Of a DNA stretch of 64,000 nt, positions 3,200 through 61,888 are shown piece by piece. Made by a program: the position numbers and the translations under genes. This stretch comes from Phoronis australis (lineage: Eukaryota; Animalia; Phoronida). Below the pieces are notes generated by a model. The model made no database searches, was not told the DNA's origin, and saw only the letters and a list, made by a program, of their open reading frames with translations. Each line of letters opens with the position of its first letter. Within the stretch, counting starts at the first letter, position 1. The stretch is from NCBI GenBank assembly GCA_002633005.1, contig NMRA01000418.1, forward strand, positions 307,173-371,172, read 5' to 3'.

Positions 3200-3800
3200 T
3201 AGAGAAACAACAAGCAAAACACTTACAGTAAATTGCAATAACAATTAACACGTTCATCAAACAAGTAACATTTGAACATCACACCAACAAAAGATAACAC
3301 GCATGTAAAAACAAAACCAGTTCACGAAAAACAAATGTTAGGTTTTCCAAAGGAGTATTTTATATTTGCGGTATTGTGATACCGTTAATGAGATGGAATG
3401 TCTAAATGAAGATCAAGCGAAATAGATTGAATCTCAAAAACAATCAACATCTTCATCAAACAAACAATAAACGAACAATATATCAACAAAGATACGACGT
3501 ATGTAAAAACACAATTCGGTTCACTAAAAGTAAATATTACGTTCATTAGGCAAAAGGCATTTTGCTGTGCACTACAATATAATACTGCCTCAACATAAAG
3601 TTAACATACTTTACTGCCCGTCTTCGTGACAGTTGCAGACTATCAATGAGTTGTAATGGCCAAATAAATAACAAGCAAAACACAATCAATTCTAATAAGT
3701 GATTAACACGTTCACTTATCAAGTAACCATGGAACATCATCAGGTATGTAAAAAATAAAACCCGATTCATGAAAAACACTTGATAGGTTATGAAGTCATC
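3200..3800 (-). repeat. About three diverged ~200-250-bp A-rich tandem units in the putative 3' UTR/downstream region of gene A; paralogous array at ~45780-46380
   Basis: Recurring AACACGTTCAtcAAACAAgTAAcatttGAACATcA...GTAAAAAcAAAACC.GTTCAcgAAAA modules at ~3245, ~3445 and ~3705, and at ~45810, ~46070 and ~46320. Confidence 0.6.
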
Positions 3801-3959: not shown

Positions 3960-4045
3960 TTAAAAGGTGGTAGAGATCATCGCCATCACAACAAAGGCTG
4001 CCCCGAGGACGAGTTTGTTTGGAATGTCGTCGCGTCCAGCCGACA
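3960..4045 (-). CDS. Gene A terminal coding exon: GPI-anchor signal (V)SAGRDDIPNKLVLGAAFVVMAMISTTF*
   Basis: Acceptor tcttcttgcag|, phase 1, 86 nt to TAA. Small residues SAG, polar spacer and hydrophobic tail. Near-identical peptide in the paralog at 46547-46632. Confidence 0.85.
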
Positions 4046-4625
4046 CTGCAAGAAGACGTCAATGACATGTACAATTATTTTCACTAAATTAGCTGGAATC
4101 AGAACATCGTAAGAAATACTTTGCCAGGTAACCCTCACACTGTACACAATAATAGGCAAGCGACCTTAATCCTGCTCCCATCTTAATACCATATACATGT
4201 ACATTAAAGAGAAGGATGAGTTCTGTCAGCTTCTAACAAACCGAATTCTATTCGAGGTTTATATATTAAGGCTTTGTTCGTTTTTATGACGTGCAGTGAA
4301 TTTCAGTAAACTAAAATTAACACAGGGTGATCATAATTAAAGATATTTTTTGACAAAGGCCAGTGGTTGAGTAAGGTTAGAATTTATAAGGGACTGGAAA
4401 CTGCAGAACGTCCAACATGTTGTAGAGACACCTCAAGTTTGATATGGTACCTGAACCAGGTTGAAAGGGACACAATCTTTTGGCAGCGTGCAGGTCAGAC
4501 TTACCCATACAACTATTGATCTGAGACAATACTGAGGTATAAAGTATAAGGATAGAGTGTGTTGTTAGGGCCAGTGTGAGGTACTTGAAGACAAAGGTCA
4601 TGTTTTTCCACAATGCCTTGCTTAC

Positions 4626-4679
4626 CTCAAACAGATCAGATGTGATCAAGGCATTGGATGCACTTGAAGATATAGGAGA
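4626..4679 (-). other. Candidate 54-nt alternative cassette exon of gene A with an in-frame stop (VSYIFKCIQCLDHI*)
   Basis: gatttttag| acceptor and GAG|gtaagc donor; splice sites also present at the homologous position in gene B (47083-47138). Confidence 0.4.
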
Positions 4680-5898
4680 CTAAAAATCGGAAAGATTCTC
4701 CTAAATCTGCCTATGGGATATCAACAACCATTAGTGATGAAGAAGCCGAAACTTGATACACTCGCGGGTTATTGCCATACCGTTTGGTACTCATCATTTT
4801 CATTGTTCTCATTTGTATGGTTTTTAATGCATCCAGATAGACACTGGCACACTCTTGTATTCATGCAAATGTTTGAAATAGATAAAAAGAAAATTGATCT
4901 ATTTATTGTATTGATGCAATCATTTCGATATCTATTACAACATGTGTACATCAATTATTTGTTAGTAAATAATATTTAATTTGTTAGATTAATTTTTTGC
5001 AGTGCAAATATATTCTTGGCCAAACGAGTGAATGTCACGAACGAAAATTATGATCAATTAATGTCATTGAAAGTTAATTTGCGATGTAACTACACGTTAA
5101 AAGTAATGTATACCGTTAGTAATTAATTGTTGCCCTTAAAAGTTAACTTGTGCAACAATTAATAACATACACAACAAAGAATCAATAAACAAAGCTTAAA
5201 CCTAATGTATGCAATTTAAAGTTAATTTACGTTATTCTTGAGAATTAAATTTGCACAATTTGCGTGGCAAACGATACTTTTTAACTCTGTCACATCTGTG
5301 CAAAACCTCATTTCAGCTACACCACTTGAATGGCAAACCCTTTTCTTAGTTAGTTATCATCTTCAATAAGTTACCAGCAATGCCAATAACCTTTCACCAG
5401 GCACAAAACCTCATTCACATTTTTCACAAGTTGAATTTTATGCTGGCCAAATGTAGATACCTGACCGAGAAATTGATTAAAGCTGGTAAAACAGCAGGAG
5501 GAGATTGAGAGACGGACTAAACGCATCAGAGTAAAAACGAATGCATACAGATTTGGACCTTTAGAAGAAATGCCCTTCAGAGAATAAGCCTTTCAGAATT
5601 AGAGGACGATACAATTCCGATTTCCCAATTCCTTAAAACATATCCTCACCTGGAAAAATATTAAAAAATGTCAAAATAATTTGAGCAGTCCTAAAACAAC
5701 GAGACACACCTTACACGCATGCCTGCTGTTATCCATAAGTGACCACAGGACAATTGATCAAGAAACATTGAGTTCGTAGAACATTTGCAGTTTGAATATC
5801 TTAAATGCTTTTGATAACAATGTTATTAAAGATTCACATCAAAGTGGTATATTAGTGAACAAAATTAATTTTTGAACTAGAGAAAAATACAGACATAC

Positions 5899-5934
5899 CC
5901 CCACCTTCTCCGTTTTCGGTAGGCTTAAAGGTAA
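5899..5934 (-). CDS. Gene A stalk microexon (V)TFKPTENGEGG
   Basis: ggtttgcag|36 nt|gtatgt; phase 1-1; no stop. Confidence 0.85.
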
Positions 5935-6486
5935 CTGCAAACCATAATTTAGTTTTACAAAAACTATTCTCATCAAACTGGAGTCTCCACACAAATGGAA
6001 ACCCAAGTGGCAAAAAGTGCTGTGCGTAAATGAAACACGAACTTTTAATACGTTTTGCCCAGTGTTGATAGAATGAGTTCAGAGGGTGCTGTTGACATCT
6101 ACCTTGTGCTACAGCAGTCTATGACGCAAAATTCGAGTGTCAACAAGGTAAAACTCGACAATCGTTACAGTTCACTTGACCCCACTAAAGTGTTTCGTGG
6201 GTTCAGGTTGTTGATCACGACAACCACTGTGTTACTGGTTCCTATGTAAAACTTAAACAGTGAGACTACTCACGTACATGTACAGGATCCCAATTGTGAG
6301 ACGTCATTCAATAGGAATGTTTGAGCATTTATGTACAGGTAGCTTCCTTTTTGCTTCCCAGCGTTTCTTATTTCTCACTTGGTCAAACACACCTTTGAAA
6401 ACGACATATGGTCTGCCTACTTACATGTATATGATCTGTGTTCAGTGATCAAACTTAACTTTGAGTTAGAGAAAAATATTTCATAC

Positions 6487-6522
6487 CTCCACCTTTTCCA
6501 TTTTCTGTTGGCTTAACGGTAT
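6487..6522 (-). CDS. Gene A stalk microexon (D)TVKPTENGKGG
   Basis: gatttacag|36 nt|gtatga; phase 1-1. Confidence 0.85.
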
Positions 6523-6707
6523 CTGTAAATCATAATTTAGTTGCACCATGGATATTCTTATACAATGTACGTATCTATACTTCAAAGTTGAGGCTTTAGA
6601 GAAATGAAAACGCAAGCGGTGAAATTTTATAGAGTGTGTACACATACTTCTGCCAGTATGCTATGTCTTCAGTGAACAGAGTTACTTTGTTTGAAAAAAT
6701 GACGTAC

Positions 6708-6743
6708 CTCCACCAACTCCATTTTCAGTTTGATTAATGGTAA
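6708..6743 (-). CDS. Gene A stalk microexon (V)TINQTENGVGG with a weaker AAG acceptor
   Basis: ggttttaag|36 nt|gtacgt; phase 1-1; contains an N-Q-T sequon. Confidence 0.65.
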
Positions 6744-7202
6744 CTTAAAACCAAAATTTATTTTTACAAGTGTGCAATTTAAAGTTAATTTACACTATTC
6801 GTGAGACTTAATTTTGCACAATTTACGTGGCAAACGATACTTTTTAACTCTGTCACATCTGTGCAAAGCCTCATTTCTGCGACACCACTTGCATGGCAAC
6901 CACGTTTCCAATTCTTAGTTAGTTATCATCTTCAATAAGGCCCCTGTGAATGTCAATAATCTTTAAGGGTACCCCAGGCTGGCAGCGGATTTGTGAAGCA
7001 AACCAAGGTTTATGTGTAGCCGCAACATCTTATTCACGTATTTTCATGACTTGAATTTTTTGCTGGCCAATTGTTCAAACCTAACCAAAAAATTAATTAA
7101 AGCTGGTGAAACAGCAAAATGAGACTGGGAGATGAAGCCAATCCCTTTTCAAAGTGATTATTAAACCGGACAAATTGTTTACATAAATTTTGATGCCGAA
7201 CT

Positions 7203-8459
7203 CCTGTTGTAAGCAAACACGCATAATTTTCACAGATCACTGTTTAGTGTGTGGAAACTGTGGCTAAGCTCATCATTGCGAATCAAGGTAGTTGGGAAAG
7301 ACTCAAGTAGTCCTGTATCTGCATGGCGTATATGTACTGTGTAAGAAAAAGAAATGAAACTATGAAACTTGGAAATAGAAATACATCAAAATATGAAGAT
7401 ATAAAACAAAATAAAACATGTTTCTGTAACTTAATTACTACAGACTATATTGTATTCGTATCGAGAAGTATAGCAGTGTAAGAGATCACGTTTTGGACTA
7501 CATGCACATGTCAACTAGTCAGAGTAAAAAGGAATAGATACGCATTTGGTATCCACTTAGTGTCAAGAATGAATGAACCTTCAGAGGAAATGCCCTTCAG
7601 AGCATAAGCCTTTCAGAATTAGGGCACGATACAATTCCCAATTCCTTAAACCGTTTACGCAACATTTGGAAAAATATATACAAGATGTCAAAATAAATTT
7701 AGCAGTCTTAAAACAATGCGACAAACTTTAGACACATGTCTGCTGTTATCCATAAAAGTGACCACAGGACAGTTGATCAAGAAATATTGAGTTCGTAGGA
7801 AAAGACTTGCAGTTTAAACAACTTAAACGNCCCTGTTGTAAGCAAACACGCATAATTTTCACCGGCCACTGTTTAGTGTGTGGAAACTGTAGCTAAGCTC
7901 ATCATTGCGAATTAAGGTAGTTAGGAAAGACTCAAGTAGTCCTGTATCTGCATGGCGTAAATGTACTGAATAAGAAAAAGAAATGAAACTATGAAACTTG
8001 GAAATAGAAATGCATCAAAATATGAAGATAAAAAACAAAATAAAACATGTTTCTGTAACTTAATTACTACAGACTATATTGTGCTCGTATCGAGAAGTAT
8101 AGCAGTGTAAGAGATCACGTTTTGGACTACATGCACATGTCAACTAGTCAGAGTAAAAAGGAATAGATACGCATTTGGTATCCACTTAGTGTCAAGAATG
8201 AATGAACCTTCAGAGGAAATGCCCTTCAGAGCATAAGCCTTTCAGAAGAAGGGCACGATACAATTCCCAATTCCTTAAACCGTTTACGCAGCATTTGGAA
8301 AAATATATTACAAGATGTCAAAATAAATTTAGCAGTCCTAAAACAATTCGACAAACTTTAGACACATGTCTGCTGTTATCTATAAAAGTGACCACAGGAC
8401 AGTTGATCAAGAAATATTGAGTTCGTAGGAAAAGACTTGCAGTTTAAACAACTTAAACG
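7203..8459. repeat. Near-identical ~630-bp direct duplication split by an N (7203-7829 vs ~7832-8459); probable assembly overlap
   Basis: Both copies run CCTGTTGTAAGCAAACACGC...AACAACTTAAACG with few substitutions; n at 7830. Confidence 0.85.
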
Positions 8460-8551
8460 CTTTGATCAGAAAATGTTATGAATAGTTCTCGTGTATGTGG
8501 CATATTAGTGAACACAATTAATTTTTGAACTAGGGAAAAATAAAGACACAC

Positions 8552-8587
8552 CCGCACCTTCTCCGTTTCCAGTAGGCTTAAAGGTAC
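8552..8587 (-). CDS. Gene A stalk microexon (G)TFKPTGNGEGA
   Basis: ggtttgcag|36 nt|gtgtgt; phase 1-1; flanking introns homologous to those of the 5899 microexon. Confidence 0.75.
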
Positions 8588-9331
8588 CTGCAAACCATAA
8601 TTTAGTTTAATGCAATAATTATTCTCATCAAAGTGGAGTATCCACACAAATGGAAAAGCAAATTGGCGAAAATTTACTGTGTGCAAGTGAAACAAGAAAA
8701 CTTAATGTAATGTGCCCAGTCTTGATAGAAAGAGTACACAGGGTACCCTTGACATCTTTATTGTGCTAAAGCTGTGAAAAAAATTCAAGTGCCTAAGTAA
8801 AACTCGCGACAATCGTTACAGTTTACCTGACCCACCCTAAAGTGTTCCCTGGGGTTAAGGTAGTTGATCACGACAACCACTGTGTCAAACGTAATCAGTG
8901 AGACTACTCACATACAGGCTCCCAATGATGAGACGTCTCTCAATAGGAACGTTTGAGCATACAGGCTGGAGTTGTAGTAGGTTATTGTTGACAGATCTTG
9001 TACCATGCATTGAGGTGTGAATCGAATATTATGTGATATTATGTTTTATACCTAGTGTTGTACAGCACACATCATGGATTTTTGTCCAACCGGTCGTCTA
9101 GGAGTCGTAGACCGGCCGTCGACCGGTCGGTAAATTTGCCTGAGGATGGTTTTTGATTAATATAGAAATTTCGTTTTCATAGCAGTGAAGTCTCGAGTCC
9201 TCTCGTTTTCCATGTCCTTCTTCCAATTTAAAAAATAACACTAACCTCGTGAAAGCAGCATATGTCCTCCCTTCTATTAAGTTATGTCTTCAGTGAACAA
9301 AGTTAATTTTATACTAGAAAAAATGACATAC

Positions 9332-9367
9332 CTCCACTACCTCCATTTTCAGTTGGATTAATTGTAT
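9332..9367 (-). pseudogene. Inactivated stalk microexon (D)TINPTENGGSG with the acceptor AG lost
   Basis: Donor |gtatgt intact and frame open, but upstream reads ggtttatatat| instead of ggtttgcag|. Confidence 0.7.
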
Positions 9368-9589
9368 ATATAAACCATCAGCTTTACAAGAATTATTCTT
9401 ATACTTGAAAGTTGAATCTCCACAAAAATGGAAACACAAGTGGAGAAAACGTTCTAAAAGTAAATAACAAGAACAACGCCAGTATTGGAATGCGCCCACG
9501 AATGCCCTGCAAACAGTGTGCTAATTTGTATCCAAAGATGGCCATTACATGTTGAATCTATCTGAAAATGGCAACATCAATTTTTCTTT

Positions 9590-10330
9590 AATAGAAAGAT
9601 GAAAGTCGTCCGTTGTCAATTCATGAAAATACACTTATTAAATTTATGAAGGATACTGCATTGGATTTAGGACATATAGCTATAGAACTGAAAAAGAAAA
9701 CTGCCACTAAGACGTCCCACATCAGTCGAAAGCTATATCTCAAGTTTCATAAATATCCGTCAACGAACTTCAGAAAAACATAGGAAGACGGGAAAAATGA
9801 AATTGCCACAGCAATCGTCAGATAGGTCTGCAAGTTGTTGTCGTCCTTAGTCAGCTTCACATACAGCATCTAATTACACTTCAGAAATTTAACAAAGTTC
9901 CTGCAATGGCATAAACACACCACTAGGACCCCAAAAAGTACATGAAGTTATGGGAAAAATCATTGCCAGCCGCCAGCGAAGGAGAATATATGCTACTTTT
10001 TAAATCTTTAAAGTGGTTTGGTAGTCACAATAGCACACGTCAAAAAACAGTAAAAATGGTCATTAAGTGGCGCAAAATACCTTGAATCAAACGGAAAATT
10101 TTAGAAAGGAATCATCTCACTAATAAATGCTTATCTTATGAAAATCCGTTGAGATCAACTTAAAAAAATAACCAATAGGGATACATCTGTAGTCCAATCT
10201 GTCTGAAAATTGTCGTCCTCCTTCGTCAACATCACATACATATACTTGCTAAATTTTATCAAGTTTCCGAAAAGCGTTTACGATATGCAGGCTTAGATGC
10301 CAACATCAAAAAACTGCCACTGTGTACCTG
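9590..10330. repeat. Diverged tandem repeats (AAACTGCCAC / GTCGTCC...CACATAC modules), probably TE-derived
   Basis: Motifs recur several times at roughly 130-300-bp spacing. Confidence 0.4.
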
Positions 10331-10505
10331 AGCATGATTAGTGATTAACATCCATACGTCGTTTTTCTGCTGCACAATAGCTTCCCTTTAGCTTTGGCAG
10401 CATTTCTCACTAATCCCATTTGGCCAAACACCAATATTATTCTCGAGAAAACGATACATGGTCTGCCCACTATCAAGCTGTCTTCAGTGAACAAAGTTAA
10501 CATAC

Positions 10506-10541
10506 CTCTTCCTCCTCCGTTTTCAGTTGGTTTTATGGTAT
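10506..10541 (-). CDS. Gene A first stalk microexon (D)TIKPTENGGGR
   Basis: ggtttgcag|36 nt|gtatgt; phase 1-1, compatible with the phase-1 end of the Ig exon at 15908. Confidence 0.85.
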
Positions 10542-10789
10542 CTGCAAACCATAATTTAGTTGTACAATAAATATTCTTACGTATCTATAAGTCAAAGCTG
10601 AAGCGCAAGACAGTTACGTCTCAGAAAGATCAGGAATAGCATGTCTTCTTATTCAAAATTCTACTAAACCAAAAGAAATGAGAATTAAGTGCCAAAGGTG
10701 TTCAACATTTTTTGTCCTAATACCAAAAAAATTGTTCATCAGTTGTTAGAGCAGCCAGGACTGGGAATCCTGACATGTCTGACACAGTC

Positions 10790-11456
10790 ATAGCAGGCTG
10801 AGAATTTTACACGTTTGACACGCTCTGAAAATGTGGACTATTGGAACAGTGTGTCAAACGTGCCAAACGTGTAAAACGTGACGTTCCAAACGTGTAAAAT
10901 ATTGCGTGTCAAAAGTGGCGAAAACGTGGCAAAAACGTGTTATTTTCGTTCTAATACTCCACGATTGACACGTTTAGCGTGTAAAACATGGCGCTTTTGC
11001 CACGCTAGCGTGTCAAACGTGGCGTTTGTGCAACACTGGCGTGTTTAACGTGGCCCTTTTGTCATGCCAGCGTGTCAAACGTGACGCTTTTGCCATGCTA
11101 GCGTGTCAAACGTGGCACTTTTGCCACGCTAGCCTGTAATCTGGGTCATTGCCATGGTAGCGAGCCCACATTTAGCCTCAGGATGTGGACAAGCCATTTC
11201 TTGTTCATAGCAGCTCACCATCCACCATGGGAATCCATACTGAAAGCAAATGTATAAAGAGATTTCTTCTTTAAGTCACTGTTTATTGTGAAATATAAGT
11301 AATTCAAAACGTGATGATACAGAATCTTTAAAAGGATAACGTAATTATCTAATTCTTACAACAGACTGTTGTCACTAAATTTCATTGCATCTACAATAAC
11401 ATTAACAGAGAAATAAGAAAATGGTTCAGCATACATGTTCAAAGTGCTTAAGCTGC

Positions 11457-11513
<57 letters not shown>

Positions 11514-12460
11514 GTATGTACATGTATGTAAGTTAGCTTTTGAGTCATGCCAGTTGCTTGAAGACAGTTTATGAAGTAAACCATGCACTTTGTAACATTT
11601 TTGAATTACCAAGAACGATTCAACAATTGTCATAAAATTGAGCTGATGTTGACGTTGCAGCCCAAACCTCTACACACAATGTCTTATCCTCATTCAACCT
11701 GACACTAAATGGGAGGTGATCCTATAACAACAGTTATGAATTGATATATTAGGGAAGATGACAGGCGTTCCAACTTCATATGTTACCTGCGTAGTCAACA
11801 GGTTTAACTAACTCTTGTTTTCTGTTACAATCGAACTTGCCTGTTTATAAGAATGACAATTCGCAAGAAAAAATTATCAACCCACTGTCAACCAGAGCAT
11901 ACCAAACTTCTGTTAGTACTGCATCACCCTCAAAAACCATGCTTCATAAGCGCTTCTCTGACACAACAGCACTCTGACAGCTAAACCAACTCTAACTTAG
12001 TATTTCGACATTTAAAAAGGCAGTGAAATTTTTGGATAATGTTTAGTCATTCAAATCGGGTGATTACCTCCAAGCGGCCTTTTCAGAACTGCCAAGCCTA
12101 TTGAAAATGTATCTTTATTGAAGAGTTCTATCATATTTTATACGTTTGACACGCTAGCGTGTAAAATTTTACACGTTTGGCAAACTAGCGTTTCACATTT
12201 TAAATGTTTGACATGCTAGCGAGGCAAATTTTACACGTTTGACAAGCTAGCGTGACCAAATTTTACACGTTTGACAAGCTAGCGTGACCAAATTTTACAC
12301 GTTTGATACGCTAGCGTGGTACATTATTACGCGTTTGACACGCTGGCGTGTAAAATTTTACTCGTTTGACACGCTAGCGTGTCACATTTTACACGTTAGC
12401 GTGGTTTATTTTGACACGTATTAAACGCTTTTTAAACGTTCGACACTAGTTTGCTCACTG
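10790..12460. mobile_element. Non-autonomous element with ~22-bp subterminal minisatellite arrays in opposite orientations (10805-11135 and 12140-12445)
   Basis: CACGCTAGCGTGTCAAACGTGGC-type repeats on the left, TTTTACACGTTTGACACGCTAGCGTG on the right; related copy at 53670-54020. Confidence 0.6.
11459..11530. repeat. (TA)n followed by (TATG)n microsatellite
   Basis: Directly visible. Confidence 0.95.
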
Positions 12461-13019
12461 AATAAAGGGTTTATTCAGTGGAACTCAGCGTTTGTCTTCA
12501 GAAACTCACCCGGGTCTCGCATGGTAAGCTAGCAGCACATAGACACATATTGTCCTGAATGGGAGTGCTCCCAATAAAAGAACTGTATGAGACGTGCCGC
12601 ACAGAAGTCAATGGTGACTTTTTCACAGCAATTATTTTACAAAACTATCCTATGTCCAATGAAATTCTCTGGATGAGTTTCCTTAATTTTTTGCGAACCC
12701 CACTCCCAGGACTACCAGATTAGTTACCGAATTAACATGGATGAACTATTCAGTAAATTTGTAACATTGCATTAGAATAGGTGTTGACACTTAGAATAAA
12801 TTTTATTTGTTGCGATCAGAAACACGTTTTAGGACTCATGAAAATTACACATTATAGAATCACTTTTAGCTCGTTTCACATATTTTAATTCAGACCTTCA
12901 ACAAGGCATAGGAATACATGTATTTCTACATATGGATATGAAGATGAAATATCAAGTACATTCTGCCTTACAAGAGTGGTTTTGTCTAGTGTTTCTTTTA
13001 TAATTCTCTAATATTTCCC

Positions 13020-14300
13020 TGTTACAGGTGCGAGAAAACAACTGAAACCAGCCATCTTACCTTCTATTTTACCTTTCAGCAAAGTGAAAAGCATTCCTTC
13101 AGCACTAACCTGAGGGAATTGAACTTCTCAATTCAGAAAGTCAGCCCTTGATATCACTGATTATTGACTTTTTACATGGGGAAAATTACTTGTTTTTAGC
13201 AATTGATGATCTTCTTGCATGCATGAGGAACTAAGTTGTGTTATAGAAAAGTTAACACTAAACTTAATTAAACTGTTCTACAGCCTTCTTAAGAAAGCTC
13301 TAAAAATAGTTGCTCACATAAAAAATCTAATGCAGTTAAAGGGAATATTTTAATTTAATGGCGGGACACTTCTCTGGGTCAACAGGAATATGAAAATTCT
13401 CAAGTATAATTGGCAATCACTTCAGATTTATAAATACGCGGCGCAAATGCACTGTATGGGGCTTTGAAACTGAAAATTTATTTCGGTTTGAATAATAAGT
13501 GACAAACTCTCCTGCTGATGAAAAATTTATTCAATCATCAAAGTGAAACATTAATGGGCTTCTTACAGACATTAAGACAATCGATGCAGTCCCTGACTGT
13601 CATTTCCGCATAATGCGTACCAAGTTGAAAAGTTTTTACCATAAGTAAAAGCCTTTCTTCTGAAAGAAAAAGTTAATGTCACTCAGTTAAAACGAACAGG
13701 AATTTATACCAGATGCTTTTGGTTTTCATTTCACTGAGATAGAGTTTCAATGGCCTGTAGAAGACCTTGTAAAAAGGTCCAATTTTAGCACGTGGGTTTC
13801 CTTCATGTAACCTCTTTTCGCCTCTGTCAATAAATTCCTCAATTTGATCCTTGAAGGTAAACACAACATCATTATAATCTCTTGACTCGTTTGGGGCCTG
13901 AAATCTGACCCTGGACTAGACCTGTTTGTAACCAGGTTTCCTTAAGCTTCAGTCCCTCATAATTCTTCCAGGAAAGGAAACATTGGCCATTGTTGTCCAC
14001 ACTTTACAAATTGTCTATGAAAGGGCATCCTCACCAATGAGTCTGACTGGTGTAGCAGTCAGATATAATTCTTCTTCACACACAAACAATCCAATGGCAC
14101 ATTTCCGTATGGTAACTTAGTGCTGCGATTCACACTTCTCCAGGGCCACTGCAGCACTACTGGTTTGTGGATGACATGCTGTGGGAAGGGAAAGGAGTTA
14201 CAAAGCTTGTCTATGTTGCAGCTTGAAGTGGTGTTAAACATGTCACTGAACCTGGAACAAATATTGAAACATGAATAATTAAGTACGTCAGGTTGGATCA
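13020..14300. mobile_element. Decayed transposon coding remnant: YqaJ/lambda-exonuclease-like fragment on the - strand (~13750-14150) and possible THAP C-terminal motif on the + strand (~13030-13080); ISL2EU-like
   Basis: Minus frame VTIRKCAIGLFVCEEELYLTATP...GYKQV...DYNDVVFTFKDQIEEFI resembles YqaJ motifs (GLFV..PYLxAxPD; YYxQVQGQ; CDFVVxT). Plus frame RKQLKPAILPSILP resembles the THAP LKxxAVPSIF motif. Many stops. Confidence 0.45.
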
Positions 14301-15907
14301 AAAACTTTGCCCTTGTTTTTCAAAAATATGATGTGGTAACTGCTTTACAAAATTATTTTAAATAATTACTATTTCCAGAAAGCAAAGGTGTATATTTACA
14401 TAATAAGTATTGGTTTGTATAGAACTGCATCTTTATTTTTCATTCCTAGCCATAACAATGCTTTAAACGCATCACTTGTCTGCAAAATATGCAAGTTATT
14501 TGAGGCAACTTCAAACCGTTGTTACTATTTTCAAGCCTTTTGATTTTGGATACTTTCAGCAATTATAAACACCAATCACAGACTCATGGGTCTGTCAAGC
14601 ACACTTCTGGTGTACGGCTGAGGGATCCGTTTCTCAGACATTTTATCTTTCTTCTAATAGAAGATATGAAAACTTGGGTCACTTAAAATTATGGATAATC
14701 TTTCTGTTGTTTATGAATGATTAAAAATCCTGAGGCACCATTGTTTTCGTAATGGCAGTAAGAATTAAACATTCAAACACGATCTCACTCGTATGTTCAC
14801 ATTAAAATTGCAATTTTCAGAAAAACGACAGTCATATGAATTTATAAACGACTTGCTATATTTTGGGATGAGTTAAGACTGTTGGCAGTTGTTGAGAATT
14901 CAGACAATATAATATATTTTAGCAGTTTACAGTGGAGAAGCAAAACAGTTTCATAAAACGTGAAAGAACTTCAAGATATTTAAAAAGTACCTCACCATGT
15001 TCTTTCTCCCGAACGCTATTACTTATTATTATCACACATTCAGTTGCACCAAAAAGATCCCGAGTGCAACGTCCAGAATCGTAACACACATCACAACAAA
15101 CAATGATTAACCCGACTGGCGACTGCCGCGAAGTCGACATCGGTCAGTACCTCGATTAACAGGTATCACTATTTTAAACATGGAATAGTCGTTAAAATAA
15201 TCACAATCCTTACCTTTGGATAGGGTCATGCATACTTCCTCTCATAGAAGCACCCTAATGGCGCAATCTCAGATTCATTTTGCACGACTGCAAGCCATTT
15301 CACCATGCTCGCGAAATCTAACACCACTGGTACACGCGCACCCTCTAGGTAATGTAAATATTGTCGAATAGCAACTACATTGCAACAAAGTCACATGTGC
15401 TTAAAATTGGGCGTTGAAGATAACACAAGTTAAATGTTTGTTAAATTACAAATAATTGTAAAACTTGCGTGTTGCTCAAAACAAGCAATATGAAAGCAAA
15501 AATACAATTGATAATGCAACAAAAATTTGAACGGAACACTAGTTTATTGACGACTTCAGGAATCCCCTTTTCCACTTGGAATTTCTGATTTCTACATGGA
15601 AATTATGGCAATTTTCTTAGTGTCAAAAGGTGCAAAATATGGTGTACAGTGATGAACTTTTCTGGTCCAGGAATGCACGAGAACAACAGATGAAGCAACA
15701 CGCTGGTGAAAGAAAAAAAATGTACTGCCAAGGGTGTTTAGAAAATACATCTCCGTGTATCTCAAAGGTTACAATACAATAATTTCTTCAACACAACCAG
15801 ACTTGAACTCCATCTCCTGAGTAATGTCTTGTTACAGGCTAACCTATGAAATGCATACTATCATCTACAACTGAATAAGCCGCCTAGCAGTTTAAATAGC
15901 AACTTAC

Positions 15908-16225
15908 CGGTCTCCAGTGCCGCAGTTTCAGCAGACAAAGTAGCGTGCCTGTTGGATACTAAACATCTGAACTGTAGGCCTACAGCTTTATTCCAGTTGA
16001 CCGTCAGTGTGCTGATACCGGTCGTGGTTCCATCATTGTTGCTGTCAGTAGTCATGGTAACATTCTCAGTTATGTTTGTGTATGCAGCGTTACCAATCCG
16101 TCGTGACCACACCATAGATGCCTGTGGTTTGCCCAAGTTTGCTTCACATTGTATGACAGTTGGTCCTGCTCCACCAACAACAGGCTGCGTCGGGGCACCA
16201 GATATAGATGGTGTGCCTGGGAGGT
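15908..16225 (-). CDS. Gene A Ig domain 2 exon (C2/I-set-like): (Y)LPGTPSISGAPTQPVVGGAGPTVIQCEANLGKPQASMVWSRR...STLTVNWNKAVGLQFRCLVSNRHATLSAETAALET
   Basis: tttacctag| acceptor, G|gtaagt donor, 318 nt, phase 1-1. Canonical B-strand Cys, C-strand Trp and F-strand FRC; paralog at 61577-61888. Confidence 0.9.
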
Positions 16226-17477: not shown

Positions 17478-18816
17478 AAATTTGGCAACCTTTTTCATGT
17501 CATTTTTAGTAAAAATGTGGTTGGTTGATAACCCCAGATATGTTTCCACCTAATAATTACCGTAATTTCTTTAATTAGTCACATCTTACTCCGGAAAGGG
17601 GTTAAAAATTTTCCGCCATTTTGCTTTCATATACATGTAGTTCAACTACAGTGTATGTGAGCTTTCAATTCAGTCATTATTTTGCCTCGATTGTGATAAG
17701 TTCGGTCATCATTTGCGTTTGTTTATGAGTCAGTCAACATGCCGCGCGATTGTTGCTTACCGGGGTGTACTCATTATTGTCTCACGCTAACGCATGGTAA
17801 GCCATCACATTGCTTCTCAAAATATGACACTCTCCGCAATACTAATGCAGCGTTTTCCGTCCACGCAACGTACCATTCAGTTGATAATTACTGAGTGCAT
17901 TTTTGAAGCGAGAAACCTCGCGAGCTGTGGCCTCTTCAGCGACTGTAATCCCTTCCCTCAAACGTAACGCAGAGCATGCAATTACGGGAAATAGCAGTGA
18001 TTCACATGAGTTGGTGATTTCTCCAGCACAGAGCAACGATGTTAAATAGTGGGAGTGAATACAGGCCCAGTTCGACACCCATGCAGTGAGGAGGATAGTT
18101 CGTCATCCACTTAACAGACTGGTGTTCCAAACTTTGATAAGGTTAATGTGCCTTGACTAAAGTATCGGAGCTATATAGATGTTGCCAGGTGCGTGACAAG
18201 AGAGTCACGAGGCGGGATGTCAGCGGTTTCGGTGCCCAGGTCAGCATCCAGTGGGAACAGCATAGGCATCCTATAGAGGTCGGTATAACAGTGCACACCG
18301 GGCACTTGCTCTAAGAGGTCCCACGACGTCTGTCCAAACCAGGGTGCGCCTCGTCGTGCTTATCGTGCCTCACTATACTTGAGTTGAAACATTATCCACC
18401 CACGGACTGTTTGTTTCCTCGTCACACTTTTATGTACAATGTCTTCGTCACTCACGTCACTGCGTCTGTGGTGTGGGTCGCCAACACCAGCCATATGATT
18501 TTCAGGCTACTAAAAACTAAACGAGAATAAATCCGACGCAGTTGAGTTCTCTAACAATCTAGCTTGTCGCAGAATACTCGTCAATGAGAAGTGGTGCCAA
18601 TTTTACGACGAAAACATCACGAAACAAGAGTGGAACACTGAGATACTCATAGTAAACTTGAACTCAGAAACAAAATGGAGAGAATAAGCCCCCTAAATGT
18701 GATTTCCTGAGTAGGGCACCACTAATTAAATGAATGTAGGAGAAGACATGATAAACTGGAATAATCCACGAACCGCATTTTCCCTAGAAATTACATGACA
18801 AAGTTGGGCTTCTCCT
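17478..18816. mobile_element. Internally deleted Kolobok-like DNA transposon with long imperfect TIRs and a THAP N-terminal remnant
   Basis: Right end ...GGGCTTCTCCT followed by TTAA; its reverse complement resembles 17480-17630. ATG at 17739 gives MPRDCCLPGCTHY...HCFSKYDTLR, resembling THAP CxxxxC/HxFP. Confidence 0.5.
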
Positions 18817-20541: not shown

Positions 20542-20916
20542 ACTCTACAACAAGCTGGCTTACTGCAGTTTTACTAACGATGTTGTCAGCTATCACTTGC
20601 AAAGTGTACTGGCTTTCATCATCGGGTGTACATGTAACTTGCGACAAAGTGATGGTGAAGTTAGTTTTTCCATTAGAGTAGTCAGTAGAACAACGAGATG
20701 CATAACTTCCAACACATCCTCCATCAGCCTCAATTCTTTGTGTTTGTACTACTATAGGCGCCATAAAAACAATCTTGCCATCTTCTTTCTTCAACTCTAT
20801 TAGGCTTAATTTTTCATCACTGCCCAGCGCATAACCTATCCGAAACTCAGCATTACTACCATTGAGGCCAATGACTTTAGGACTTACAGACACACTAAGG
20901 GCAAAAACAGCAACAT
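20542..20916 (-). CDS. Gene A Ig domain 1 exon (atypical V-set-like): (D)VAVFALSVSVSPKVIGLNGSNAEFRIGY...FTITLSQVTCTPDDESQYTLQVIADNIVSKTAVSQLVVE
   Basis: ttttggtctttcag| acceptor, GAGT|gtaagt donor, 375 nt, phase 1-1. V-type pattern (G-x-x-A-x-F-x-I, ITLSQV, DESQY); joins the next exon as VVE-Y-LPGTP. Confidence 0.85.
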
Positions 20917-22485
20917 CTGAAAGACCAAAAAAGAAGGAATTAACATTACCGAAAACTTGCAAATTCACGCCATAGGCGCTTAAATTGGGAAACCCTGAGA
21001 CATGGAGGTGGGTGATTCAAGTCGGTGGGTGGGCGTCAGGGCAATTACCCTAGCAGTGGCAGCTTACATCCCAATTGGGCAAGCGCGCGATTTTTTCATT
21101 TAATCCTGGGACACATATTGTCGTTCAATAAGCAGACCACAAAGTTTGTCATGGCAGAAACAGGTTTTCGACTTCGAAAGTAACATTATTAATATGTTTT
21201 GGGTAAGGTATAGATTTGTTGCATGCATTTTTTATGGCCCTAAGTGGGCATAAAAAGTGCAGAACCGTTCTGCACACTTTGAGACTAAATAGGATAGTCT
21301 CGTATGAAAAAATCGCCTTCAGTCTGAATGTCTAAGCTTGTTTCAGGAAAATCAGGCTAAGACAGTCACAGTCGAAAAAGAAACAGATATGGTAAAACTT
21401 CAACAGCTACAGTATTTAGCACACAATATGGCATACAAGGGAAATTTGATTTTGTCAAATTTTTCAAGAGGAATAGATATTCACAAACTGTTATTCTATT
21501 GTTAGCTTACTACATGTATGTAGTGTGTAGATGTAACAAAACAACATTTGGTAATTCAAAGCTTTTTTATAATTTTCTGCTAAGCAATCAGCCTTTGAAA
21601 AATGGAAATTGACAATTCTGGTGATTATTTTTGTGCTAAATAAGTGATAATTGAAGTTACCGTAACTTCTTCGAAAAATGGGCTCAGTACATGTACATTG
21701 TAGTTGGCTAGGTTCGGCTTGGCCACAGCTGTGAGCTATTCCACCAATACTGCGCATTGTCCTGCTGCAAAACTTGCCTGAGGGTTATGTAGTCACCGAC
21801 CCTATTAAAATGTCCGTGGCCAACTTCCAAACGTCATATCTTGGAATTGCTGATCAGGTCATATGGAACTTTCACATACTATGCTTTATGAAATACTCTC
21901 CAAAATCCTATTAGGAACGTTTAAAATGGTCAATTTGACATGAGGGCTTATCAAAACATGAACTTAAAAGGTTTTACATAAGTGTTTGACATTTTCTTAG
22001 TGTACCAGAATGCTATGACCCACAAATGAAATAGCTGTCTCTAAAAAGACTGACTGTTGATGTAGCTATCTCTAAAAAGAGGCTGACTGTGCATAGATAG
22101 CCACAATTGAGCTACCTACAGTGTATCTGTAACCAAACGACTGGCTGTGCATAGATGGACATAAATTTGTCATGCTGATAATGTTGGCATGCTGCAACTA
22201 ACAGGGATAGCAATGGCTTCGTTATCTACCTTCTCTGTTTTGTTCCTTGACTGTTTACACATGACCTTCTGTTATAGTTTTGCTTATGGGTTTGGATTCG
22301 GTGACTGTGGCCATGCTGGTCCTGTTCCTCTGTGTTCTGCCGTTACTTGGACTCACGTTGATCTGTTCATGGTACCACCGGGAGAAGATAAAGAAATACT
22401 GGATCAGCAGAACACTGGGCAGGAAGTATCAGCACGTGTTTAAGTGAACTATAGTCAGTTTGGATTTTGTGTAAATGTAATGAGT

Positions 22486-24253: not shown

Positions 24254-24299
24254 CCTTAAAAAACGCACTCAAAACTGCATAAACAAACAGCGATATCAT
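24254..24299 (-). CDS. Gene A first coding exon: signal peptide MISLFVYAVLSAFFK(D)
   Basis: ATG at 24299 with an in-frame upstream TGA; 46 nt; AAGG|gtgagt donor. Phase 1 joins the V exon to give MISLFVYAVLSAFFKDVAVFA-LSVS, a typical hydrophobic leader. Confidence 0.8.
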
Positions 24300-30020: not shown

Positions 30021-33000
30021 CAGACCAGTCATTCTAGGGCTTCAGAGGGCCCAACCTAGAAAAACTTGCAAATGAAGGTTTTTTTGCAGAAATGGCATCT
30101 TTAAACAAGATGGCGGAAAAAATGGCCCTCCTTTACCGGTGTTTACTGCTTTCTGGCATGTTACTCATATGTAACAGCTAGAAATAAAACGATAAAGTTT
30201 GTCATTGATTTTATACAGTTCGTAACAGGCATACTAATCAAAAAATTCCAATATTCCGTGAAAGAAAACCAATATGGCCGACAAAATGTCTGCCGAAACG
30301 GCAATTTGGTACATTTTGTAAGATTTCGTTTTTTTATTTTGCCCTGAAAATTATAAAATTTTTATTCTTTTGTAATGTAGACAATTGAACATGTCTTACC
30401 TTACAATTGGTCACTGGTTGGGGAGAAAAAATCAAGATGGCTGACAAAATGGCGGCCAAAATTACCGCCAGGTCACAAAACCCCAATTTAAAGCATTTAC
30501 GTTCCTTAAACATTGTTTGTAACCTGATGGGCAATTACACAAAAACATTTTACAATCTACAGTCAGGGTTAATGAGTTGATTGTTTCTATAATTGGTTTT
30601 TCAGGTTTAGATACTAAATGTGAAATTTTAATCTCATTTTAGATTATATGACATAAAATTTGTTGTGTTTTTCAGAAAAGCCATTAGTTAAATTTTCATG
30701 ATAAACTTCACACACTCATTTATTTTTCTGTAAAATATATTCATTTGAGGTATCAAAGATAATATTTCTTAGAAAAATATGAAATTCTGGTGGAGATATT
30801 GGCTTATTCATAACACAAGCCCTGAATAAAATTGGGCAGAAAGTGGCTTTTTTCTCTGCTATTGGAGATATTATTAGATGTTCCCAAGCAATGATTTCGT
30901 CTGCTGCTGTCATGTGTTGAGAATTTGGCTGTTGATTTCATCTGAATTTGATGAAAAGGAAATAAAATTGTTCAACAAAAAGTTAGTAATTCAATTTTGT
31001 CATTTAGTATTCACACTTTGTTTAATATGAATGCTGATTTTAGAGGAAATTAGTGCTAGTAAACAAAACAAAAGTGATCTGCAGTCATTTGTTCCGAGCC
31101 AGGCTTGGCCGATTTCATACTGAGATGAGCTTAATGTCAGGCACAGAGCTTCACGAAGTTCTTGAGATAGTGCATGCATCAAATAGTGTGATCCTTATGT
31201 CCCACTTCCAAATATTGCCAGATCAAGTAACGTCAATACAGAACCAATGAAGACAGAAGTTCTGGTTCTTCAGAAATCCCAATAGTCCCAAATGTCACCA
31301 ACGCAGAACACACAGATTCCGTGCCAAGATGGGGAGCAATTCAATGCTTGAACACCCATATTGGCTCGTTAGAATATGGAGACAGATTCTTCAGACATCC
31401 CAACTGATCACATAACTAGATGTATACGCTGAGGCATGCAATGCACAGCCAGTGTCTTCCGATTCTGAACCTTGAGTTATAATGGAATACCCTCAAGAGA
31501 GTTCACTTCTGGCTTCCGAACAACTGCCACTGATATATTCAAATACGACTGAATCAGAGTATAGGTCTTCAGAATTCGCAGTGACAGAGAATAGTTCGTC
31601 AGAAGAATCAAAGGTCAATGTTATTCTTGATGATGATTTGAGAGGTTGTCTGAAGCTGTGTAATGATGTTATGTCTGGCATGACATCTGTGCGCGTTGAT
31701 GTATGCTCGTCGGATTGTCTTGTAGGTATCCATAGAAATTGAAGCACATAAATTAGACTTGTCCTTGCAAAGTCGAATCATTAGTCTTTGGCTTCAGTAT
31801 ATGAAGATGACTGACATCCTTCGACTTTTTAAAAGCACAAATAACGTCAGATTGGGAGCCTCACCTGAAATGCTGCCTTACTTTGCAGCTGCTGTTCACA
31901 ACTCTTATGCAAAATCTGCATACATATACTTGCAGCAGACGCAGCAACTCAGAGACACCCGTCCAGATGTCATAAGACGAAGTCAAAGATTTTGGACCCG
32001 CTTGTCATATGATCTTCTAATTGAACAAACGTTCATGAAAAGTTTGAAAGCACCAGGAGCTTTAATTAGATGTTGCGAAATGGGAGATACGCAGAGTGCA
32101 CCATGGCTGCTTTCCTTGCCGGCATACTTAAGTATAACTGGTACCATGCAGACTGGGACAAACCTGAGTTGTGAAACATGTCAGCAGCATAAAGAATGTA
32201 CCCAAAAAAGACAGTCGCGTGACGACAAAGACGTCCGCAGCCTTGTTGAATTCCTCCACAACAGAAACCCATTTTAAAAACAAACATTACAGAATATCGT
32301 CACTGGTGTGACTGCAGGCACGCGTGTCAATTCCGAAAATGGCAAACAAGTGGGGATGGCGATTCGCTTGTTTATGGAGGGTTCAAGGGTGAAAGACTTC
32401 ACTATCAGAAAGAAAGACAAGGTTGTGGCAATGACAAGTCAATCAGTCCATGTTGCTTATAGTGATTTTACACAAGTATCTCCACGATTGCTACTTCAGC
32501 GAATCCTGACAGCTGCAAAAGACAATAGTGAAAGTTTATGAAGCCTTTTGATGTTTGAGCTGTGTGCTGGTGCTCTGCTCTTTTTGAAACATCTGGTCTT
32601 CCCAGAGTCTCTAATAAATCAATATTTTCTGATGCAATCTGGTCCAGTGGGGGACTACCTGAGGATTTCAGTTTCCAGAAAACATGGTGATGCATGTAAT
32701 CGACGGCGGTTCTCTCCTTCACTGTATTCCATGGCCTAGAGGTGCAACATTTCAGTCGTTTGGCAGAGCATATGTGGATTACATTAGTAAGTGCACCCAG
32801 CCTACATGTACCTATAGAAAGAACAGTAGAGAAAGCAGCACAAGGTCCAACTACACTTATTGCAGACGACAGAGACATGTTGGTTCTTTTGTGTTGCCAT
32901 GCTACTTCACAACAAATAATGTTCATGAAATTTGACAAGAGGCACTGAAGCAAGAGGAGAGTCTGGGACATCAAGAAACTACAGTTGTCTCTTGGAGCCG

Positions 33001-46546: not shown

Positions 46547-46632
46547 TCAAATGATGGTAGAGATCATCGCCATCACGACAAAGGCTGTCCCGAGTACGAT
46601 TTTGTTTGGAATATCGTCGTGTCCAGCCGAAA
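46547..46632 (-). CDS. Gene B terminal coding exon: GPI-anchor signal (V)SAGHDDIPNKIVLGTAFVVMAMISTII*
   Basis: ctctttttgcag| acceptor, phase 1, 86 nt to TGA; same length and frame as in gene A. Confidence 0.85.
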
Positions 46633-47082
46633 CTGCAAAAAGAGGTCAATCACAAGTACATTTATTGATAAGGTCGTCAATAAGATAGCTGGAATCAAAA
46701 CAACGTAAACCTCGAAATATAATCAATAATCTGAAAGTGACCTTAAATTTGCAGTGAACTCCAGTAAACTAGAATGAACATAGGATTGTCATTAGTGAAA
46801 ACATTTTTGGCATAGGCCAGTGATTGAGCAAGCTTAGAAGGTTCGGAAGAGGTAAGGGACTGAAAACGAACTTACAACATGTTGTAAGGACACTTCAAGT
46901 TTGAAACAAGACCAAACCAGGATGACAGGGACGAAAGGTTTTGCCAGATTACGTGTCAGGCTGGCCGCTCAGCGATTGACATATTGATACTGAGGTTAAC
47001 TGTATCAGTATACAATGTGTAGTCAGTGCCAGCATGGGGCTGTTCAAGATAAAAACATGATTTAATACCATGACCTCCTTAC

Positions 47083-47138
47083 CTGGAGCGTAGATAAAAT
47101 ATGATTAATATAGTGAACGCCGTGGCGGATATAGCATA
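47083..47138 (-). other. Candidate 56-nt frameshifting cassette exon of gene B
   Basis: ttttcctttgcag| acceptor, CAG|gtaagg donor; homologous to 4626-4679. Confidence 0.4.
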
Positions 47139-48756: not shown

Positions 48757-48786
48757 CTCCAGCTTTTACAGTTGATTTAATTGTAC
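48757..48786 (-). CDS. Gene B stalk microexon, 30 nt: (G)TIKSTVKAG
   Basis: gatttgcag|30 nt|gtatgt; phase 1-1; 6 nt shorter, frame preserved. Confidence 0.75.
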
Positions 48787-49401
48787 CTGCAAATCATAAG
48801 TTAGAGTAGATGGAAAACCAAGTGGCGTAAAGTTACTGTGAATAAATTGAAATAAAAATGAAAACTTATTCTAGTGTGTCCAGTGTTGATAGAATGACTA
48901 CACTTGGTAATGTTGACATATTTCTTGTTTTCAGAACGTCTATGACACAAAATGTAAGACTTCACGCTACGGTAAACCTCACGGCAATCGTTACTGACCG
49001 CACTTACATGTAAGGGTTACAATTGGTCAAGGTTCTTAAGTATGACAATCATTGTGTCAACCTTAATCAGAGACAATATTCACATACAAGCCCTCAATGC
49101 TGAGATGTCACTCAATAGGAACCTATGAGCAAACATCCTGGAGATGTTGCAGAGATTTTAGTTGATAGATCTTGTGCCATGCATTGAGGGACGAGCTGAA
49201 AATTCTGTTATGGTAGTATGTTTTCTGTGTACTTTACCTGAGGACGATTTTTGACTAATATGCAAACATAGTTTTCATGCTACATTCTGGTGTACCTATA
49301 GTTTTCCATTTCTTACTTCTAATTTAACATATGGCTTCCCCCTATTGAGTTATATCGTCCATGAACAGATTAAACTTTAAATAAGAAAAATATTGACATA
49401 C

Positions 49402-61576: not shown

Positions 61577-61888
61577 CGGTTACTTCAATGGCCCCGGTTT
61601 CAGCTGACCTAGTAGCCTGCCTATTGGACACTTGACATCTGAACTGTACATTATTATCAGCCGTATGCAAGTTGACCGTCAGTGTGCTGGTGCCATCATT
61701 GTTGTTGGTGATAGTCGTGTTAACATTCTCCGTTATGTTTGTGTATGCAGCGTTTCCAATCCGACGTGACCACACCATAGATGCCTGTGGCTTACCTAAG
61801 TTTGCTTTACATTGTAGAACAGTTGGTCCTGCTCCACCAGACACAGGCTGCGTCGGGGCACCGGATATAGATGGTGTGCCTGGGAGGA
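61577..61888 (-). CDS. Gene B Ig domain 2 exon: xLPGTPSISGAPTQPVSGGAGPTVLQCKANLGKPQASMVWSRR...STLTVNLHTADNNVQFRCQVSNRQATRSAETGAIEVT
   Basis: ttttttccctag| acceptor, G|gtaagt donor, 312 nt, phase 1-1; canonical Ig Cys/Trp/Cys. Upstream exons not found in the window. Confidence 0.9.

Follow-up and report, generated by a model that had tools for sequence, protein, structure and literature searches.

The 64,000-nucleotide stretch of Phoronis australis DNA analysed here (the window) holds a minus-strand gene for a protein with two immunoglobulin (Ig) domains, V and C2, in which a tandem array of 36-nt microexons lies between the C2 exon and the last coding exon. RNA reads establish these units, at the level of the gene family, as exons that are included in series; the number of units differs between genes, and stalked and stalkless transcripts are present in the same samples. 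The most probable reading, to which we give about even odds (0.5), is that the tandem phase-1 units are spliced one after another into a flexible tether that grows or shrinks as exon copies are gained or lost, the entire array being skipped at times.

Architecture of the gene and its paralog

All parts of the gene are in phase 1, and the V and C2 exons, five units and the last exon translate as one stop-free reading. The V-set-like exon (20542..20916; 375 nt, phase 1-1), which has read depth, lacks by eye the usual B/F-strand Cys pair and C-strand Trp. Its Pfam V-set match falls below the cut-off (E 0.053), its ESM Atlas look-alikes are V-set-type clusters (0.92-0.95), and a single-sequence AlphaFold model had a pLDDT of 38 and was unusable. 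The best of these clusters carry mainly Cnidaria labels, based on few records. The C2-set exon (15908..16225; 318 nt, phase 1-1), which also has read depth, matches PF08205 (C2-set_2) with an E of 1.5e-6 and 28.6 bits against a cut-off of 21, and has an Atlas look-alike at 0.96; the second domain is thus of the C2 set, as in a CD48-like V+C2 GPI architecture. In the last coding exon (3960..4045), seen in the translation and in reads that run on through the 3' UTR to at least 3000, small residues are followed by a polar spacer, a hydrophobic tail and a stop, a layout that by eye is of the GPI-signal type and suggests that the protein is GPI-anchored.

At the 5' end, a transcribed minus-strand exon (22230..22470, 5' extent approximate) is spliced to the V exon by a CT..AC joint, 20916-22230, seen in 54+47 reads. 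A TAA stands nine codons ahead of the joint with no in-frame ATG after it, so this exon is probably an alternative 5' exon or a non-coding one. A candidate signal-peptide exon encoding MISLFVYAVLSAFFK is predicted by a script scan at 24254..24299 (minus strand; phase-1 donor GTGAGT); among the 19 candidates in 20917-45000 it is the nearest with a perfect donor, and it lies beyond the stretch covered by read mapping.

The sequence-only reading had placed six 36-nt units, five of them flanked by AG/GT, between the phase-1 C2 exon that ends at 15908 and the phase-1 last exon at 4045, and we find the units, their peptides and their position on the minus strand as it described. In transcript order, microexon 1 (10506..10541; DTIKPTENGGGR) is flanked by AG/GT and lies in repeat-rich bins that mask its own read support. 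Microexon 2 (9332..9367) has lost its acceptor, with ATAT where AG is expected. Microexons 3 (8552..8587; GTFKPTGNGEGA; weak donor GTGTGT), 4 (6708..6743; VTINQTENGVGG), 5 (6487..6522; DTVKPTENGKGG) and 6 (5899..5934; VTFKPTENGEGG) all have AG/GT. Nine minus-strand places in the window, a count that takes in copy 1 itself and a partly matching paralog copy at 48751, match copy 1 at 24/36 letters or better; in 200 Markov resamples such matches averaged 0.02 and never exceeded 1.

Acceptors of the units have short pyrimidine tracts broken by purines, and 5-30 nt downstream of the donors lies an 18-nt intronic motif, a candidate splicing element (10483..10500, minus strand). Further minus-strand sites are found in the same gene at 9289-9306, 6668-6685, 6441-6458 and 5851-5868, and in the paralog described below at 50052-50069 and 48715-48732. 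These seven matches in the window compare with 0.27 expected, and every one adjoins a unit; with up to 4 edits allowed the motif follows 9 of the 10 units, and its column identity is 0.73 versus 0.41 further downstream.

A tandem paralog with four units, absent from the sequence-only reading, occupies 46.5-62 kb. Its minus-strand parts are a C2-set exon (61577..61888; 78% identity over 591 nt, the V exon lying beyond the window), three 36-nt microexons (51035-51070, 50099-50134 and 49402-49437), a fourth of 30 nt that keeps the frame (48757-48786), and a last coding exon of the GPI-signal type (46547..46632). Neighbouring genes therefore differ in unit number, six versus four.

The six-unit count depends on the join at N 7830. 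This N is flanked by a 628-nt direct repeat (7203..8459, 96.8% identity) and probably marks an assembly join or overlap between copies 3 and 4. The join is plausible because the sequence ahead of the N agrees at 97% with the sequence that follows, but at only 78-82% with the tail of copy 6. An assembly artefact would account for the 628-nt repeat and not for the units, which are alike at 24-32 of 36 letters within the gene and recur in the paralog, and this origin was rejected. The N at 1168 shows the same repeat-flanked pattern.

Serial splicing of the units

Stranded RNA runs (X1-X4) were chosen by the same species label as the window. Nearly all of their reads differ from the window gene at 3912, 3927 and 4008 and derive from other alleles or paralogs, not from the window's own allele; as they cannot be phased to single genes, exon status is read at the family level. 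The joints used by the reads match the predicted boundaries 4045, 6487 and 6522. The GPI acceptor is joined to one or two units in 72 reads of X1 and 74 of X2, 146 in all, and units are joined to one another at 6522/6524-6487 and 9367-6487. Loose ends at a copy-5-like unit (189+178 and 217+180 reads) continue on both sides into further units, so that two units in series are seen within single reads, and overlapping reads link three or more. A copy-2-like unit is spliced in RNA as well (joint 9367-6487, 8+18 reads), with a one-letter difference from the window at 9357 in 17/17 and 30/30 reads.

Reads at copy 4 differ from it at 4 sites and fit the third unit of the paralog better, and a 36-nt plus a 30-nt unit precede a GPI exon in 19+13 reads. 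The window's copies 3 (bin depth about 1 only) and 6 (0.06 and 1.04) are almost without coverage, intron bins in 4314-8453 outside the copy 4/5 bin have a depth below 2, and the strand fits a minus-strand gene. The commonest last unit differs by eye from window copy 6 at 8/36 letters; there are at least three last-unit variants in X1 and at least four in X2, a picture that alternative last-exon choice could also give. A further V-C2 joint type occurs in X3, and several paralogs are expressed.

Direct splicing from 15908 to 4045 in the absence of any microexon reads had been named in the sequence-only reading as a refutation of exon status. The outcome is mixed: such joints exist (34 reads, three different joints) alongside the unit-bearing joints, and the clean 4045-15908 joint was not found among the best 15 of 22 and the best 15 of 35 joints, nor does the window gene's own Ig end, 15908, occur in the direct joints listed. 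Skipping of the whole array is plausible because the 22 bridging letters of one direct joint, 4043-15925 (14 reads; letters from 7 X1 reads), are identical to those formed where the paralog's Ig end meets its GPI start.

These joints bear on a less likely alternative, put forward in the sequence-only reading, that regulated skipping of units in various combinations yields a ladder of isoforms from a single gene, with which cells tune the height of the receptor. All units are symmetric, the 4043-15925 joint equals the paralog junction though the paralog has four intact units, three or more kinds of unit come after a copy-5-like one in reads, and the broken pyrimidine tracts and common downstream motif would suit regulation; precedents are the stalk exons of CADM1 (PMC5385562) and CD46 (PMC2118878 and PMC7709105). 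Against a ladder stand the reads themselves, which are not assignable to genes when several paralogs are expressed, the missing 4045-15908 joint among those listed, and a Gly-rich chain that would give small, non-linear steps in length.

Constraint and turnover of the exon copies

The units show a protein-coding pattern of substitution: the coding frame gives pS 0.44, pN 0.19 and pN/pS 0.42, whereas the shifted frames give pN/pS of 0.85 and 1.0. Codon positions 1, 2 and 3 diverge by 0.13, 0.23 and 0.38 (permutation p 0.013), although the 36 pairwise comparisons and this p value are not independent, the copies being related by descent. The use of predicted boundaries by reads and the excess of third-position substitutions together bear out, at the family level, the claim that the units are real symmetric exons. 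A comparison of exon with flank divergence, proposed in the sequence-only reading, agrees: identity is 74% in exons, 50-55% in flanks more than about 45 nt away and 49% in random sequence. The nine 36-nt exons align without gaps and the tenth with a single gap of 6 nt, while the flanks need many. Two Thr and one Gly are invariant in all nine 36-nt copies. A tree of the ten cassettes shows no clustering by gene, and only the pairing of copies 3 and 6 is firm (100/99 support).

It is unlikely that the array is a tolerated linker, in which a single short hinge exon is required and the others arose neutrally by unequal crossing-over. Loss of the acceptor in one of six copies, the weak donor of another, the occurrence of stalkless transcripts and a pN/pS near 0.4, which is only moderate constraint, all fit that account. 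However, splice sites and frame are kept in 9 of 10 copies while the flanks have decayed to near random, and unit-bearing joints stand to direct ones at 146 to 34, detection of the two being unequal.

The serial, flexible tether that we favour would work as follows. Family transcripts splice the units serially between the second Ig domain and the predicted GPI signal. A cassette of about 150 nt, comprising acceptor, 36-nt exon, donor and downstream motif, would be copied in blocks, and tether length would differ between genes and alleles mainly because exon copies are gained and lost; the entire array is probably skipped in some transcripts. Because every copy is symmetric, the frame would never be shifted by gain, loss, the splice-site death of copy 2 or the 6-nt deletion in paralog copy 4. 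Copy number may also vary between alleles, as the differing arrays in reads suggest, but these could be further paralogs.

Properties of the stalk

The five-unit stalk contains 16 Gly and 10 Thr in 60 residues, and such a Gly/Thr-rich chain is likely to form a flexible tether. By a worm-like-chain estimate, each further unit adds about 0.4-1 nm once the stalk is close to full length, compared with a contour of 4.6 nm. The notion of a molecular ruler graded in 12-residue steps is weakened accordingly; a linear ruler is doubtful because the chain is so rich in Gly. Such a tether would make the V domain more mobile and let it reach farther; its reach would be close to zero in stalkless forms and roughly 4-9 nm with five units. 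The receptor may act in adhesion or recognition.

The two invariant Thr of the units may carry O-glycans. An improbable alternative goes further and holds that glycosylation and release, not height, are selected, with O-glycans on the Thr of the first half of a unit, a protease site in the Gly-rich second half, and shedding set by unit number. Its support is the invariance of both Thr in 9/9 copies and a layout like that of the 33-bp CADM1 exon 9 as described in PMC5385562, with Thr in the N-terminal half followed by non-glycosylatable residues. The argument is by analogy only. Moreover, GPI proteins can be freed by phospholipases, with no need of a site in the stalk.

Very improbable is the possibility that the window gene is a decaying copy with unused units, its RNA support coming from other members of the family. 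The window allele is absent from the listed runs, the RNA-supported upstream exon has no in-frame start and copy 2 is dead; yet the V and C2 exons, five units and the last exon are all stop-free, pN/pS among the gene's own six copies is 0.38, and in X1 and X2 coverage of the 3' UTR is at least 88%, far closer than the paralog's 68%. Mutually exclusive use in a Dscam-type cluster, with one unit per transcript, as the sequence-only reading had entertained, would suit equal-length homologous exons in tandem and several last-unit variants per sample, but is contradicted by reads with two units and overlaps of at least three in a row, is largely refuted at the family level and is scarcely credible.

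A more speculative extension of the tether, possible but doubtful, is that polymorphic adhesion or self-recognition receptors have a digital reach of 0 to 5 or more 12-residue exons, governed jointly by haplotype and by a splicing switch at the intronic element that is duplicated along with each exon. If this were true, receptors at a contact would have to agree in height and in V domain before they could bind, and size-based control of recognition would have been invented independently outside vertebrates.

Relation to known systems

Exon-encoded variable stalks are known from CD44 and CD45, and the antibody hinge of IGHG3 is rich in Cys and Pro. The window gene has short, frame-preserving juxtamembrane stalk exons of the CADM1/CD46 type. 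CADM1 (SynCAM1/Necl-2) is described as an Ig adhesion molecule with short in-frame, Thr-bearing exons 8/9 between its membrane-proximal Ig domain and the membrane and a form without any alternative exon, but it is transmembrane, its single-gene skipping is proven and its stalk exons encode 28 and 11 residues (PMC5385562); the window gene has homologous repeat units of one length and a predicted GPI anchor. CD46 has a juxtamembrane stalk of variable length from short Ser/Thr/Pro exons (STP-B, 15 residues), and differs in its complement-control modules, transmembrane anchor, S/T/P-rich rather than Gly-rich composition and proven isoforms, as reported in PMC2118878 and PMC7709105.

Serial homologous mini-exons that differ in number between genes (here six and four) recall IGHG3 and chicken BG genes. 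In IGHG3, repeated hinge mini-exons of 15 residues each set linker length and alleles have 2-5 of them; that hinge lies between Fab and Fc and its allelic variation is proven, whereas variation in the window family is inferred (PMC8674132). The BG genes form a tandem Ig multigene family with 27-37 very short repeat exons, most of 21 nt and a few of 18 or 24 nt, their number varying between genes and haplotypes, although these repeats form a cytoplasmic coiled coil and not an extracellular tether in the account of PMC5938342. The design of vertebrate CADM1, CD46 and IgG3 is likely to have arisen independently here in an invertebrate variant.

The likeness to the CD48/CD2 family, a small two-Ig cell-surface design in which engineered long forms of CD48 switched from enhancing to inhibiting recognition, showing that receptor size can matter (PMC2195552), is of architecture only, with no significant match to solved structures: PDB searches gave nothing better than E 0.0059. 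One protein search confirmed none of 610 candidates. A second gave 15 weak matches of mixed names, the best of the 10 examined being an unnamed 80-aa fragment at 48%. In a metagenome scan the unit pattern had no matches and none of 329 candidates for the C2 exon was confirmed. Membership by homology in CD2/SLAM, CEACAM, nectin or Beat was rejected, these searches having shown no significant similarity to named members. In the open-licence literature we found no published account of this receptor family or of a comparable array in any Ig gene of an invertebrate, and no paper joining microexons, tandem duplication, stalk and immunoglobulin; a 2025 review of invertebrate IgSF contains none of the words stalk, microexon and GPI.

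Two invertebrate systems were considered and set aside. Hydractinia Alr genes, as portrayed in PMC9546547, are Ig genes that lie in clusters, encode each domain in a separate exon, include an unusual V-set and are alternatively spliced, but have an Fn3-like spacer, transmembrane helix and cytoplasmic tail, which the window gene lacks, and no paired cysteines in domain 2, where the window gene's domain has both Cys; here the C2 exon leads to low-complexity units, a hydrophobic tail and a stop. Schistosome MEG genes share runs of very short exons and splice variants, but their products are secreted and mostly built from 10-20 microexons (bioRxiv 10.1101/2023.06.21.545858). In the window gene the five intact units, a stalk under two Ig domains, total 180 nt versus 693 nt of Ig exons.

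Exon birth, death and in-frame shortening can be seen within this one window, which offers a natural series for testing height versus glycosylation versus shedding as the selected trait of stalk exons, and a candidate co-duplicated splicing element for study. Gene finders are likely to overlook such exons and so to annotate a stalkless protein.

Architecture of the gene and its units

The minus-strand Ig gene, from an animal with spliceosomal introns, combines a 318-nt exon (16225-15908) encoding a C2-set domain that scores over the Pfam cut-off with a 375-nt exon (20916-20542) whose V-set score is weak (E 0.053) and in which, by eye, the Cys pair and Trp typical of such domains are missing. 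The Atlas look-alikes of the 375-nt exon fall in V-set-type clusters (0.92-0.95), pointing towards invertebrates without settling a taxon. The last exon (3960-4045) begins with small residues, goes on through a polar spacer and closes with a hydrophobic tail that reaches the stop, by eye the layout of a GPI signal. Between the 318-nt exon and the last exon (from 4045) lie six 36-nt minus-strand units, numbered in transcript order (10506-10541, 9332-9367, 8552-8587, 6708-6743, 6487-6522 and 5899-5934), with the places and peptides that the sequence-only reading had assigned to them. AG and GT border five of them, copy 2 (9332-9367) having lost its AG, and phase 1 holds at every joint from the 318-nt exon through the units to the last exon, the successive introns being 5366, 1138, 744, 1808, 185, 552 and 1853 nt long. 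The joined reading frame runs across V, C2, five units and tail with no stop.

Upstream, 54+47 reads connect 20916 with 22230, the end of an exon in which there is no in-frame ATG after a stop in the Ig frame. Read in another frame, this joint (22230-20888, minus strand) gives a short signal-peptide-like sequence that stops after 21 residues; the nearest good signal-type candidate exon predicted from the sequence is 24299-24254 (minus strand), outside the stretch compared with the reads. Protein searches found no named close relative.

A single N at 7830 is enclosed by a 628-nt repeat of 96.8% identity (7203-8459), probably an assembly or scaffold overlap and no real duplication. This join is not the origin of the units, yet the count of six runs through it. 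At 709-1627, another single N (1168) lies between 459-nt repeats of 98.9% identity, again a probable scaffold overlap with no real duplication.

Units are spliced in series at the family level

Three raw-read runs (X1, X2 and X3) and one contig set were taken by species label, with 18-19% of each raw run read; the counts of unit-bearing and direct joints that follow are from X1 and X2 only and cover the 15 joints listed of 22. The last exon shows strong, stranded expression in X1 and X2 and barely any in X3. Its acceptor is joined directly to a copy-5-like unit (6+7 reads), to one further 36-nt unit and then a copy-5-like unit (47+54 reads), or to a 30-nt unit followed by one resembling the third unit of the paralog, the second minus-strand gene at 46547-61888 (19+13 reads), a total of 146 unit-bearing reads among the joints listed. 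Since unit-to-unit joints are also found (3+4, 7+6 and 8+18 reads) and the copy-5-like unit has loose ends on both sides (189+178 and 217+180 reads), the main form carries at least three units in series. A unit one letter off dead copy 2 is spliced in the sampled animals. From these joints it follows that the units are real exons, serially included, at the level of the gene family; the mutually exclusive use that had been proposed is excluded by reads carrying units in series, and a ladder of stalk lengths made by a single gene is a possible reading.

Direct splicing of the C2 exon to the last exon also occurs, in three joints (8+6, 7+6 and 5+2; 34 reads among the joints listed), and in none of them does the C2 side end as in the window gene. 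The proposed refuting check, direct 15908-4045 splicing, had a mixed outcome. The 22 bridging letters of the 8+6 joint are those of the paralog's C2 end and last-exon start, and the paralog has four intact units, which suggests whole-array skipping in that gene; a unit-less sister gene would give an identical picture. The count of direct joints is probably too low, as reads from paralogs sit close to the likeness limit.

The window's allele is absent from the runs, as nearly all reads differ from it at 3912, 3927 and 4008. Copies 3 (8552-8587) and 6 (5899-5934) are covered to a depth of about 1 at most, and the last unit seen most often in the reads departs from copy 6, by eye, at 8 of 36 letters. 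Pooling of animals, additional paralogs or the use of alternative last exons could each account for the last-unit variants, of which at least three are listed for X1 and at least four for X2.

Run X3 has 254 reads that link V with C2 (16224-20547) with six other letters, and the last exon is nearly uncovered there; a family member of more distant kinship dominates this run. Within the 3' UTR (3247-3682), 18+16 reads of X1 and X2 jump backwards by 436 nt across 21 other letters; the UTR of the expressed copy, allele or paralog, is rearranged here. Intron segments at 9484-10256, 13420-14660 and 17894-18081 are deeply covered in every run, with loose ends, and are repeats expressed from elsewhere.

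History and constraint of the array

Copy 1 is matched at 24 or more of 36 letters by nine places (0.02 expected), and those outside the window gene's array belong to the co-linear paralog (46547-61888, minus strand), which carries a C2 exon and a last exon of its own, and four units (36, 36, 36 and 30 nt, the last shortened in frame), its V exon lying past 64000, outside the window. The two arrays are partly co-linear, units of the two genes intermingle in the tree, and copies 3 and 6 pair there as sisters; an array is therefore older than the gene split and was later remodelled. The best-supported picture is that a symmetric cassette would have multiplied in blocks. Minisatellite blocks of 31 bp lie upstream of the arrays in both genes (10975-11137, 12131-12397 and 53948-54020), the first two in inverted orientation. 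Broken open frames at 31476-33073 (plus), 37449-39598 and 58614-59490 (both minus) resemble what we take, by eye, to be transposon remnants, 38548-39598 being integrase-like.

Comparisons among the nine 36-nt copies are indications and not independent trials, because the copies share ancestry. Exons are 74% identical pairwise, flanks past ~45 nt 50-55% and random pairs 49%. In the phase-1 frame pS is 0.44, pN is 0.19 and stops are absent; in the shifted frames the ratios are 0.85 and 1.0, and one and eight copies contain stops. Divergence rises over codon positions 1, 2 and 3 (0.13, 0.23 and 0.38; permutation p 0.013). Two Thr, whose codons carry synonymous changes, and one Gly never vary. A single gap falls in an exon, the final copy of the paralog lacking 6 nt, and the flanks are gap-rich. 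On these indications the units are under coding constraint. An 18-nt motif 5-30 nt past the donor in nine of ten units has seven window matches at three or fewer mismatches (0.27 expected) and none elsewhere in the window. Its column identity (0.73) exceeds that of the sequence preceding it (0.64) and following it (0.41). The motif may act as a splicing element or just be a slow-decaying part of the cassette.

Relation to known stalks and proposed function

The stalk array is real, transcribed at the family level and a variation on an already known design. The stalk exons of CADM1 (PMC5385562) and the STP exons of CD46 (PMC2118878; PMC7709105) would be alike in working if skipping is real, and IGHG3 hinge exons (PMC8674132) and chicken BG 21-nt exons (PMC5938342) share the repeated build of variable number; the window gene belongs to none of these systems. 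It fails the Alr features (PMC9546547) and does not qualify as a micro-exon gene of the schistosome type (bioRxiv 10.1101/2023.06.21.545858). Literature listings that cover few subscription papers, and the review PMC11999971, showed no Ig gene of an invertebrate built on an array of this kind.

By analogy with CD48, which switched to the opposite effect when lengthened by engineering (PMC2195552), we infer that the stalk may set reach in adhesion or recognition. Of the 60 residues in its five intact units, 16 are Gly, 10 are Thr and 4 are Pro. In a worm-like-chain model with assumed persistence lengths, five units span 4-9 nm according to stiffness, and going from four to five units adds 0.4-1 nm, against a contour of 4.6 nm per unit. 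On this model the stalk is more of a tether than the rigid ruler with 12-residue steps that was proposed, unless glycans stiffen it. The large step in reach is from none to several units, the contrast present in the reads.

The translation of the common read units (4047-6487) has Gly-Ser-Gly amid acidic residues; among the window's units Ser-Gly occurs in dead copy 2 only. This Gly-Ser-Gly context resembles a glycosaminoglycan attachment site.
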